Shown: positions 9,326 to 41,267, counted from the stretch's first letter. The stretch is DNA of 64,000 bases from Eledone cirrhosa (GCA_964016885.1 OZ024743.1:330708001-330772000); one strand, 5' to 3'. Notes: generated by a model not told the origin, from the sequence alone. Made by a program: numbers and translations.

Positions 9326-9532
9326 TAGGAACAAGTATGACCCGACGGCAGAGCTCAAGCCGTTTCGACGGCTAATTCTGGACTAAAAAATTAGTCCAGA
9401 ATTAGCCGTCGAAACGGCTTGAGCTCTGCCGTCGGGGTCATACTTGTTACTATTACCCACTCTACTACCCTAAGTATTGAGTACTTTGGTGCGTTATGGT
9501 CCATCTGGTTCCTTACCACATTTCCTTCGTTA
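9326..9532 (+). mobile_element. Hairpin mini-element derived from the family-3 PLE end
   Basis: ~60-bp inverted arms centred ~9388 plus an ~80-nt tail matching 11170-11245; TA flanks. Confidence 0.88.
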
Positions 9533-9760
9533 TATATATATACACAGTCATATATATACACGTATGTATATATATATATATATATATTGGATTTTCTAAT
9601 TGGATCTTCACTCTGAAAGTAGACATATACCAGGAGTCTACCTGAACTTCCACCAGGAAATCTTTCCCTATCACTGATATTTTCTTTGCTTCATACATTA
9701 TATATATATATATATATATAGATATATATATATATATATATATATATAGATATATATATA

Positions 9761-9960
9761 TAACGAACGAATTGTAGTACGGAACCAGATGGACTATAAC
9801 GCACCAGAGTACTCAATACTTATGGTAGTAGAGTGGGTAATAGGAAAAAATATATATGACCCCGACGGCAGAGCTCAAGCCGTTTCGACGGCTATTTCTA
9901 GTCTAGAAATAGCCGTCGAAACGGCTTGAGCACTGCCGTCGTGGTCATATCTTTTCCTAT
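9761..9960 (-). mobile_element. Hairpin mini-element, family 3, opposite orientation
   Basis: Long tail on the left, palindrome centre ~9902, short end ttcctat on the right; TA flanks. Confidence 0.85.
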
Positions 9961-9977
9961 AGATATATATATATATG

Positions 9978-10585
9978 GTGGCTGCCAACTTGTTTTCGAG
10001 TACGGCCACTACTTTATATCCATATAGGAGAACCCCTACCGATGCGCTGAACGAGGGTGACTTTTTAGTTCAGCCAGCGACTTGAAAACTCTGGTACAAA
10101 CACTACACTTGTGACAATTATTGACGCATAGTGCTGGGCCCATGGTACCATGTGACGACAAGTGCAGAGAGATCTCCAGATATAAAGCAATGCCTGTGCC
10201 GTGAAGCTTTTATAGTGAGCAAAGTCACTGCACAAAGCCAGTCCCACTCTCTTAACCAAGATGATATTTACCAAAAAGAAGAACAAGTCAACATCATTGG
10301 ATACCATCAGGGTTGCAGGTGTTATATCAGAGTTTTCCTTCTCGCAGAATTCTGCCTTGACAAAGGCTAAGGGGTCATCTCTCCCGGTGATTTTGGATGG
10401 CCATTGACTCTTAAGAGCTCCTTTGCCCTTTGACAGGTTTTGTTTTTAGTCTTGCAGGGTGTCCAAAATCACCCTCCTCACCAAGAAACCTTGGTAGGGT
10501 TGCCAGTTTAGTCGCCAACGACCCGATCATGGGACAGGTTGTACTGGGATACATGTTACCAGTAGTACCAACTGGTGACCTGACA
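9978..10585 (-). mobile_element. Unassigned ~600-bp insert in TA, possibly a 5' fragment of a non-LTR retroelement
   Basis: More GC-rich, bounded by TA. Minus gggtcgttggcgactaaactggcaaccc recalls LINE 5' UTRs; no diagnostic protein motif. Confidence 0.3.
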
Positions 10586-11337
10586 TATATATATATATAT
10601 ATATATATATATATATATATATATATATATATATATATATATAACGAATGAAATGTGGTAAGGAACCGGGTGAACCATAACGCACCAAAGTAGTCAATAC
10701 TTAGGGTAGTAGAGTGGGTAATAGGAACGAGTAGGACCCCGACGGCTGAGCTCAAGCCGTCTCGACGGCTAATTCTGGACTAAATGAACATTTTTATCCT
10801 GGTATATGAATAGCCGAGCTTCTCAGGGGGTAATTCCATATATGGTAAAAGTGATTGCCACAAGGATTGGTCAAAAGTTTGTTGTTGAGACACATAATTC
10901 TATCATGGCAATTTGTGGAAGGAAGGGGTAGCTGAACCTGCCAGTAGAAGAAAGAGGAAGAGGGGTGGAGGAAACCCAGTCGTGCGTTGATAGTGCCAAC
11001 TACAGCAGGGTTTTTGACCAATCCTTGTGACAATCACTTTTACCATATATGGAATGACCCCCTGAGAAGCTTGGCCATTCATATACCAGGATAAAAATTT
11101 TCATTTAGTCTAGTATTAGCCGTCGAAACGGCTTGAGCTCAGCCGTCGGGGTCCTACTCGTTCCTATTACCCACTCTACTACCCTAAGTATTGAGTACTT
11201 TGGTGCGTTATGGTCCACCTGGTTCCTTACCACATTTCCTTCGCTATCTAGCTCCTATTCCTGTAGTAGAGCACTTTCCGACGTTACCACGCCGTATCCA
11301 GACTTTTCCGCTAAGCTCAAGTTCTTTCACCCGCACC

Positions 11338-38663: not shown

Positions 38664-39038
38664 TAACGCCTAGGGGTATTACTTCTACTACCACTATGAC
38701 CACGACCACTAACAACAACAACAACAACAATAATAATAATAATAAAAGTGATGTTGATGGTGATGATTAATAGAAAATGCTATTTTCATCATTTCAAAAA
38801 AGCAAAACAATTGATACGTTGGATATGACTATTGGTCGTTAGCATCTTCAACCAGCCGTGACGCTTAAACCAATCAGCTGTAGTAATTCAGTGAAACTAC
38901 ACACTGATTGGTCGAAATACAGTTTACAGGGCTTTGCATTCTGGAGCCACTTTTCTCTGTATAAAATGTATAAAAGGTAGGAAATTTACCCATCTCATTA
39001 CAGTTGAAAATTGCAAACTCGACTGTCACCACATATCA

Positions 39039-39077
39039 TGAACCTGAAGATTGCGAAAGCATGAAAGTACTTGTTCA
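39039..39077 (+). ncRNA. Minimal hammerhead, 3' pLTR
   Basis: Identical to 34837-34875. Confidence 0.82.
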
Positions 39078-39573
39078 ATTAACACTTAGAATTTAATATT
39101 CTATCATACTATTTCATTATAATACCATTATATATATTTTAAAGGATTGTAAATAAAACGAGTAAATCAGACAAAGTTGGAATTCCTCTTATTAATATAA
39201 TCTTCTATACACAATCATACACACCCGTGTATATTTACCTATCTATATCTATATATATATACATATACATATATATATATATATATATACATATATATAC
39301 ATATACATACATATGTATATATAGATACATATATATATATACATATATATATATACATATATATACATATATATATACATATATATAGATATACATATAT
39401 ATGTATATATATATACATATACATACATATACATATATATATACATATATATAATATACATATATATATATATACATATATATACATATATACATATATA
39501 TATATATATATACATATATATACATATATATACATATACATATATATGTATATATATATACATATATATATGT

Positions 39574-40061
39574 GTAGGAGGTGAGTTTTATTGTAGTACA
39601 ATAAAGCAATGCAGATATGGGATAAGAAGCACTCTACAGTTTGTAGGACTGGAGTATACATAATATATAAGATCAAAAGATGGTTAAAGGAGTTCCATGT
39701 ATTTTATTATGCGCATTTCAAAAACAAACATCATCATGCAATAATATTTGTGTTTTCATCAGATAAAACAGGAGAACATGATATGAAGGCTAAAAAACAC
39801 TTGTGGATAGTGCAGTTTTAAATCAACTTATAAAAAGTAGTTTTAGATTGATGTGTGATATTGGGAAAAATATTTTATTTAGAGAGGGGGGGGAAAGATG
39901 AGAAAAGGGGAGGAGATGAGAGTGAAGGTGGAGAGGGAGAGATGGGTGATAGAGAGAAAGAGATAGTTTTTATAACTGAGAGAAGATATATTGTTTTACA
40001 TAGAGAGGTTGAGAACCGTTGGAAGATAATGTATAAATTAAAAGAATTTGAAAATTAACGA
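39574..40061 (-). repeat. Inverted pLTR arm (with long tail) of the family-9 PLE at 46050-48498
   Basis: 39660-40061 matches the reverse complement of 47893-48060 and 48110-48498; GAGTGCT at 39628-39634 (minus). Confidence 0.88.
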
Positions 40062-41066
40062 TATATATATGTATATATATATATATATATATATACATAT
40101 ATATATATACATATATATACATATATATATATATATACATATATACATAAAATATATATATACATATATATACATATATATATATATATACATATATACA
40201 TATACATATATATATACATATACATATATATATACATATACATATATATATATATATACATATACATATACATATATATACATATATATATATATATATA
40301 TATACATATACATACATATATATATACATATATATATATATATACATATATATATATATATATATACATATATACATATATATATATATACATATATATA
40401 TATATATACATATATACATATATACATGTATATATATATACATATATACATATATATATACAAATATATATATATACATATATATATATACACATATATA
40501 TATATACACATATATATATATACATATATATATATATATATATACATATATATATATATACATATATATATACATATATATATATATACATATATATATA
40601 TATACATATATATATATATACATATATATATACATATATATATACATATATATATACATATATATATATATACATATATATATATATATATACATATATA
40701 TATATATACATATATATATACATATATATATATACATATATATATATATATATACATATATATATATACATATATATATATACATATATATATATATACA
40801 TATGTATATATATATACATATATATATATACATATATATATATACATATATACATATATATTTATATATACATATATATATATACATATATACATATATA
40901 TATATATATATACATATATATACGTATATACATATATATATATACATATATATATATATATATATACATATATACATATATATATATACATATATATATA
41001 TATATATACATATATATATATATATACATATATATATATATATACATATATATATATATATACATA
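40062..41066. repeat. kb-scale degenerate (TA)n/TACA array
   Basis: Similar arrays at ~33770-34357, 44358-46050 and 48490-50140. Confidence 0.95.
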
Positions 41067-41267
41067 TAGGAACCAGTAAGACCCCGACAGCTGAGCTCAA
41101 GCCGTTTCGACGGCTAATTCTGGACTGAGTCCAGAATTAGCCGTCGAAACGGCTTGAGCTCAGCTGTCGGGGTCTTACTGGTTCCTATTACCCACTCTAC
41201 TACCTCAAGCATTGAGTACTTTGGTGCGTTATGGTCCACCTGGTTCCTTACCACATTTCCTTCGTTA
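41067..41267 (+). mobile_element. Hairpin mini-element, family 3
   Basis: ~60-bp inverted arms centred ~41127 plus long tail ending ccttcgtta; TA flanks. Confidence 0.9.

Follow-up and report, generated by a model that had tools for sequence, protein, structure and literature searches.

We analysed a 64,000-nt stretch of the Eledone cirrhosa genome (GCA_964016885.1, OZ024743.1:330708001-330772000; hereafter the window, with positions counted from its first letter) that carries short TA-flanked hairpin elements related to a Penelope-like element (PLE). These hairpins are minimal PLE insertions. Each was probably made by two cDNAs that began at two internal sites of the RNA, one from either strand of a (TA)n target, ran off the 5' end (predicted to be capped) and were then fused head to head.

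Three TA-flanked elements and one degraded copy are present in the window:

9328..9532, no strand assigned: mini-hairpin 1; inverted short arm ~9328-9387 from site A, sense long arm ~9391-9532 to site B, A-rich junction.
9763..9958, no strand assigned: mini-hairpin 2, flipped; inverted long (tail) arm on the left, short arm on the right.
41069..41266, no strand assigned: mini-hairpin 3; short arm 41069-41126, untemplated G 41127, long arm 41128-41266.
~59498..59581, no strand assigned: degraded mini-element; short arm to about +2, joined to the long arm without the middle part.

The layout is asymmetric, with a short arm of about 60 bp that ends at a terminus termed site A and a long arm of about 140 bp that ends at site B, 80 nt beyond site A. 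Both hairpin ends run into (TA)n. A prediction made earlier from the sequence of the window (the original prediction) had described ~200-bp palindromes that consist only of the 3' half and tail of a hammerhead ribozyme and that turn around inside its stem II. The elements were found close to the predicted coordinates, and their length, TA flanks and centre sequences were as described. They hold the hammerhead 3' half and tail and lack the catalytic 5' half, and on the modeled hammerhead fold their centres map to the upper extension of stem II. The palindromic part, however, is only about 120 bp (two arms of about 60 bp) and the remaining 80 bp or so is a single-copy unpaired tail. Mini-hairpin 2 is an older copy with 81-83% identity to the other two. 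Both arms of mini-hairpin 3 reach the position defined below as +1, with one extra G between them. In contigs of four sequencing runs from one study depth changed in a step at 14680, which hints that assembly error did not create the stubs; this depth is not copy number and the runs may be from the source sample.

The hairpin termini are identical to those of a parent PLE in the window, both ends of which also lie in (TA)n. Its pseudo long terminal repeats (pLTRs), open reading frame (ORF) and reverse transcriptase (RT) start sites are given below, with the A of TTAGTC (window 14680 and 11107) numbered +1:

10643..14740, + strand: parent Penelope-like element with Hydra-type motifs; inverted arm from site B (10643-11010), 5' pLTR (11012-11246), ORF, and 3' pLTR ending at site A.
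11166..11246, + strand: 80-nt tail between the insertion termini site A (+60) and site B (+140), the putative RT start sites.
11188..13560, + strand: 790-codon stop-to-stop frame; RT followed by a GIY-YIG-like region, with RWR, DKT, CxxC and CxH motifs.
14630..14725, + strand: type I hammerhead in the 3' pLTR; core 14635-14641, predicted cut after 14720.
14649..14685, + strand: putative core promoter in loop II; TATA-like box near -30, initiator TTA(+1)GTC with +1 at 14680 (11107 in the 5' pLTR).

The 790-codon frame also carries YxDD and YIGLT motifs. No Pfam match was found for it, and by BLASTP it aligned (E=5e-8) to a neighbouring ORF with RVT_1 and GIY-YIG matches. The available text of PMC8557442 gives as Hydra-clade traits an RWK-like motif, DKT for DKG, absence of GxKF/Y, a CxCX5C linker, CxxC and CxH close to the end that carries the endonuclease, and (TA)n targets. 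RWR and DKT were present and GxK[FY] was absent in both the window ORF and copy L155, and the insertion is into (TA)n. The CxCX5C linker, CxxC and CxH were all found in L155, and the third Cys of the linker is missing in the window copy. By these motifs the parent is a Hydra-type and probably endonuclease-containing (EN+) PLE. Long copies have pLTRs in direct and inverted arrangement with the tail on one end only, and their kilobase-long arm is headed by either site A or site B; because either site can head such an arm, both appear to be start points.

Arm ends were located in a sample unselected on the centre, the first 100 of 3,931 short arms of the young subfamily S1. By eye, 16 of these continue upstream; the other 84 were analysed and 79 of them had a partner arm. 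This sample is anchored on the short arm, about four of its junctions are mis-parsed, and it retains two neighbour pairs with common flanks (L144/L145 and L152/L153). Short arms ended between -3 and +8 in 75 of 84 cases, with the mode at +1 (23 arms), and long arms in 55 of 79, with 15 at +1. In this subfamily TATTTAAA lies at -29. A total of 354 long arms varied at -1 as compared to 18 at -2, and 97 of the 100 variants listed from those 354 had the initiator TCAGT. TATA boxes and initiators have known consensus sequences, and TCAGT is the textbook initiator. The stop position thus looks like an RNA polymerase II transcription start. In the accessible parts of the literature, TATA and initiator-like motifs were noted in a rotifer pLTR (PMC3846280) and the Penelope of D. 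virilis was given an internal promoter without TATA (PMC2377424). Among 43 long arms, four ended at -93 to -97 and two at exactly -230 (window 11012, 11010; L073, L074, L158, L159), which are possibly minor upstream RNA starts or pause sites.

At S1 junctions with insertions, the first extra cDNA base was C in 22 of 28 arms that ended at +1 or +6 (17/23 and 5/5, respectively) versus 6 of 35 at the other stop positions where C is untemplated (Fisher p=2e-6). A second count, by eye, covered 50 listed of the 99 loci where two full arms are separated by exactly two bases. The spacers were AA/TT (13), CC/GG (10), CT/AG (7), AC/GT (6), CG (5), AT (4), CA/TG (2), TA (2), GA/TC (1) and GC (0), and 45 of the 50 are combinations of a templated A and an added C. 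As far as the text of PMC11702581 was available, the extra G at full-length L1 5' junctions is ascribed there to the mRNA cap, and the untemplated C after the arm stop may likewise copy the RNA cap.

In other families the predicted promoter lies apart from the ribozyme. F3, located next to L114, has 11,296 arms, and the ORF motifs of L187 make it a further Hydra-type family. Among 100 listed arms scored by eye, 43 ended at +1 to +3, 63 at +1 to +9 and none at -1 to -5; 19 continued upstream and 18 ended earlier. The F3 +1 is 30 nt past TATAAATA and 6-7 nt upstream of the CUGAUGA core, and because it lies upstream of the core F3 hairpins hold whole hammerheads. F2 is the window element at 34364-39249, with RVT_1 and GIY-YIG matches. 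Of 20 fetched short arms, 12 ended 28-40 nt past TATAAAAG, with the core starting at 75 (BLAST ends are approximate), so the stop is about 45 nt upstream of the hammerhead core. A stop predicted earlier for F2 from one hairpin in L117 was discarded, as at most 1 of 100 arms ended near it and the real cluster is about 150 nt further upstream. In a sister family (3,134 arms) the stop was around TTAGTT and about 8 of 100 arms continued upstream by eye. On the predicted promoters, what stays constant across families is the distance from TATA box to initiator and not stem II. More repeat families have TA-flanked hairpins, seen at L003, L016, L121 and L157, one with a whole hammerhead core in its long arm.

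These positions bear on the ribozyme-guided step that the original prediction had proposed. In F2 and F3 the fold point is upstream of the hammerhead core and still about 30 nt past the TATA box, which speaks against such guidance. The fold point falls in stem II of the focal family because the putative promoter of that family sits in loop II, and its location in the ribozyme is incidental. The hammerhead core also differs by subfamily. The young S1 (L156) has UUGAGAA (U3-A8), a PLE variant already described in the available text of PMC4209133, and its hammerhead fold is the minimum-energy fold. The subfamily of the window has CUGAGAA with a C3/A8 mismatch; its hammerhead fold is 3.6 kcal/mol above the best fold and this core is likely poorly active, yet 987 exact copies of it exist genome-wide. 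These copies, together with the report that RNA cleavage is not required by the PLE enzyme PAc in vitro (PMC11167929, seen in part), weigh against ribozyme guidance. In an Rfam scan of the window, the 150 matches listed out of 309 were all to miRNAs and driven by microsatellites, with no hammerhead among them. The number of intact cores (987) relative to all hairpins was dropped as a measure since the core pattern matches one subfamily only.

The hairpins are abundant. An exact pattern detected 16,467 in the 3.0-Gb genome and the reversed control pattern detected none, and 52,348 arms matched a 24-mer. Pairing of the arm ends was scored in 53 hairpins, namely the three of the window and the first 50 on contig 1. 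Site A was paired with site B in 49 of the 53, three were scored A/A and one B/B, and the 49 had 41 distinct centres. The 79 near-identical S1 copies had 65 distinct junctions. As junctions vary among otherwise identical copies, each hairpin was formed at insertion, and the view that the hairpins formed independently, as products of retrotransposition of a pLTR family and not as a DNA-transposon family, was borne out. The evidence first offered for independence failed. The mirrored variant gacagctgag, thought to be specific to one copy, was seen in both arms of 12 of the 49 copies and in the 3,931 short arms genome-wide, and is the marker of subfamily S1. The expected excess of arm-versus-arm over copy-versus-copy identity was not found either: compared with the nearest other copy, the partner arm was closer in 1 of 49 copies, equally distant in 25 and more distant in 23. 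Arms were nearer to each other than to a random copy (mean of 2.3 versus 5.3 differences in 50 nt), and mirrored bases absent from the rest of the sample occurred in one copy only, L050.

A single cDNA might instead fold back, either close to the end of the RNA or within stem II, extend on itself and leave at site A. The original prediction proposed self-extension of this kind from stem II, and an idea of Arkhipova (2013) comes close to it. On such a snap-back the first-made arm should reach further and the junction should need microhomology and a loop. No arm polarity was seen, and this largely refutes self-priming: among 49 copies the short arm reached further in 20, the long arm in 19 and both equally in 10, and the 52 S1 junctions in which neither arm ended at a position higher than +10 divided 18:18:16 (short:long:equal). 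Overlap at the 79 S1 junctions was zero in 19, 1 nt in 12 and at least 2 nt in 12, with an insertion in 36, leaving 55 without microhomology, and several junctions are perfect palindromes with no loop, impossible within one strand. It is true that the two arms almost always share a haplotype, that A+B pairing would follow naturally from self-priming, that templated duplications at some junctions show local snap-back cycles, and that self-priming is how PLE junction palindromes are read in the available text of PMC3846280. Set against these are, besides the junctions, the extra C on either or both arms, the kilobase arms that start at site A in long copies and the fold point outside stem II in F2 and F3, and we consider a single self-primed cDNA very unlikely. 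The junctions of L108, L128 and L144 consist of the final 5-12 nt of the cDNA copied again in tandem, like iterative slippage or end-joining insertions.

Two cDNAs might also stop where an RNA structure or protein blocks the RT, or at a processed uncapped RNA end, with the C coming from a generic terminal-transferase activity. The fold of the window subfamily is indeed dominated by a perfect 6-bp tetraloop hairpin immediately downstream of the stop, and the F3 stop is the first base of stem I, but three families with different folds stop about 30 nt past a TATA-like box, C is enriched only at the pyrimidine-purine starts (+1 and +6) and not at other stops, and a variant with a canonical initiator exists; we judge a block or processed end improbable. 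Hardly credible is amplification of a miniature inverted-repeat transposable element (MITE)-like, non-autonomous unit from hairpin masters, or deletion of the centres from longer palindromes after insertion. High copy number of TA-flanked inverted repeats would fit it, as would a junction, CTGTACAG, common to 16 of 50 copies of subfamily S5. The fixed internal sequence of such a unit was not found, given the many distinct junctions of near-identical S1 copies, and the recurrent S5 junction is a 4-nt palindromic microhomology. Copies with and without that junction carried the same tail variants (9 versus 6 parsed of 17 fetched, a comparison of low power). The ends are also asymmetric (A versus B) and equal to the PLE termini, and a sharp stop with an added C is unexpected from deletion.

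Several observations weigh against two cDNAs that run off a capped RNA end. By eye, the added C was weak in the sister family (present in about 2 of 20 arms that end at +1) and mixed in S5 (6 C and 6 G). Position +6 was picked after seeing the data, and the same pattern could arise without cap copying if the RT has a terminal transferase activity that prefers C. Over all 79 S1 junctions the short arm reached further more often (37:24:18), a skew due in part to the anchoring of the sample on the short arm and to the mis-parsed junctions, and the recurrent S5 junction runs counter to independence of the junctions. An S5 arm was joined to an S1-type partner in 6 hairpins, one of which is two adjacent separate arms, versus 520 S5/S5 hairpins. 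The near-uniform arm haplotypes (about 1% mixed) fit one RNA copied twice, or fold-back, and give little support for two RNAs, although they are not decisive. One RNA copied from site A and then by strand displacement from site B would explain both the shared haplotypes and the A+B pairing. Nearby long-arm pairs (C1 86.02 and 92.45 Mb; C2 53.12 Mb) both carry the -1 C variant and differ at -8 (G versus T), which suggests that the two arms of these pairs copied different pLTRs.

For two cDNAs that run off the RNA start, the steps would be as follows. An RNA would start at +1. The enzyme would nick both strands of (TA)n and prime at sites A and B; the termini are those observed, and priming there is proposed from PAc. 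Both target strands would thus serve as primers. Both cDNAs reach the RNA 5' end, often with an added C that would come from the cap. The cDNA ends lose 0-8 nt before they are joined, presumably by host end-joining, and some junctions gain templated insertions. Stubs made in this way lack the upstream TATA region and would be dead on arrival. Long copies that cross +1 could come from read-through RNA, as proposed by Frangieh (2024), or from a strand transfer that uses the 41-nt overlap from +1 to the hammerhead cut. Such a transfer would leave a cap-derived G at -1 of long arms if the extra base were retained; this scar was not found (3 of 100 listed arms, all of one element). We can tentatively imagine, with somewhat less than even confidence, that PLEs replicate via a doubled target-primed strong-stop step. 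A dimeric enzyme would initiate both cDNAs on a single RNA, close to its capped 5' end, long copies would arise only after transfer to the 3' pLTR through a retrovirus-like R region (+1 to the hammerhead cut; 41 nt here and 45 nt in F3), and failed transfers would be the hairpins. If true, this scheme would account for inverted pLTRs, tail, partial tandems and the role of the hammerhead together, and PLE promoters could be mapped from genome sequence alone.

The window contains other repeats. At least seven further Penelope-like ORFs or fragments are present (2-688, 3421-6517, 15115-16581, 28010-30046, 34364-39249, 46021-48489 and 62103-64000), several with inverted ends and hammerhead cores, and a near-perfect inverted repeat of 820 bp occurs at 62109-64000. 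A dispersed repeat of 150-190 bp that resembles a short interspersed element has about ten copies (16607-16800, 25349-25808, 52197-56003 and 59607-59808). A perfect palindrome of 104 bp heads a 45-bp tandem array, and there is a second minisatellite array (21609-22348 and 23180-24655).

Much of the hairpin architecture is known. The canonical EN+ PLE unit, as published in the available parts of PMC8557442 (Craig 2021) and PMC3846280 (Arkhipova 2013), has an inverted 5'-truncated pLTR, a one-sided tail and (TA)n targeting. It is like the hairpins in its head-to-head inverted pLTR, tail on one end, junction palindrome, (TA)n targets and pLTR hammerhead. The hairpins differ in that 84 of 100 sampled S1 short arms stop within the terminal 60 bp, the junction is at one position with an added C, and the tail is 80 nt as compared to the 30-40 nt given there. 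Our data argue against the self-priming reading put forward in that literature. So far as its text was accessible, the origin of the head-to-head inverted ends of PLEs is left open there: self-priming on an antisense template was a guess in 2013, and papers of 2021 and 2024 leave the later steps unvalidated. We found no published link of PLE inversion junctions to the RNA start or cap in titles, starts of abstracts and parts of texts, a search outside which lay most subscription journals and supplements. In the portion of PMC11167929 available, PAc (anole Poseidon) cuts and extends both strands in vitro, and its RT starts at two internal sites that bound the tail. This resembles the mechanism proposed here in the two internal start sites around the tail, the extension of both DNA strands, the AT-rich target and the uncut RNA template. 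As described there, tandem read-through RNA was proposed as the template, and the RNA 5' end and the joining of strands were not followed.

In the twin-priming mechanism of L1, two target ends prime and the internal junction is head to head. With the untemplated G at the RNA start (PMC11702581, in part), L1 twin priming is like the hairpins in all three respects. The two cDNAs of L1 are copied from different segments of the RNA, with inversion as a minority outcome, whereas in the hairpins the same 5' segment is copied twice and this is the main outcome. For retroviral and LTR-element minus-strand strong-stop DNA, RT starts near the RNA 5' end and runs off the cap. On the mechanism proposed here the hairpins would share this, with a terminal redundancy also available (+1 to the hammerhead cut, 41 nt), but their synthesis would be primed by the target and doubled and would involve neither a tRNA primer nor an integrase.

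According to the accessible part of a preprint (bioRxiv 10.64898/2026.07.22.740005), the retrozymes of animals derive from pLTRs and form tandem direct units, each with a complete type I hammerhead, and hammerhead pairs on opposite strands 100-700 bp apart are described for Schistosoma in the text available of PMC4209133. Like non-LTR retrozymes and MITEs, the hairpins are short, ORF-less, abundant and pLTR-derived. Unlike them, they are inverted, dispersed, not tandem and not amplified as a unit, and the stubs of the focal family have no complete hammerhead. For repeat annotation it matters that 'MITE-like' repeats abundant in such genomes can represent failed PLE insertions, and the positions of their junctions would report PLE transcription starts. 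With tens of thousands of independent junctions the question of inversion becomes testable by counting, and the counts favour twin priming with run-off at the RNA start. Overall, the hairpins are a known architecture in an extreme, abundant and minimal form, with new and testable evidence on its mechanism.

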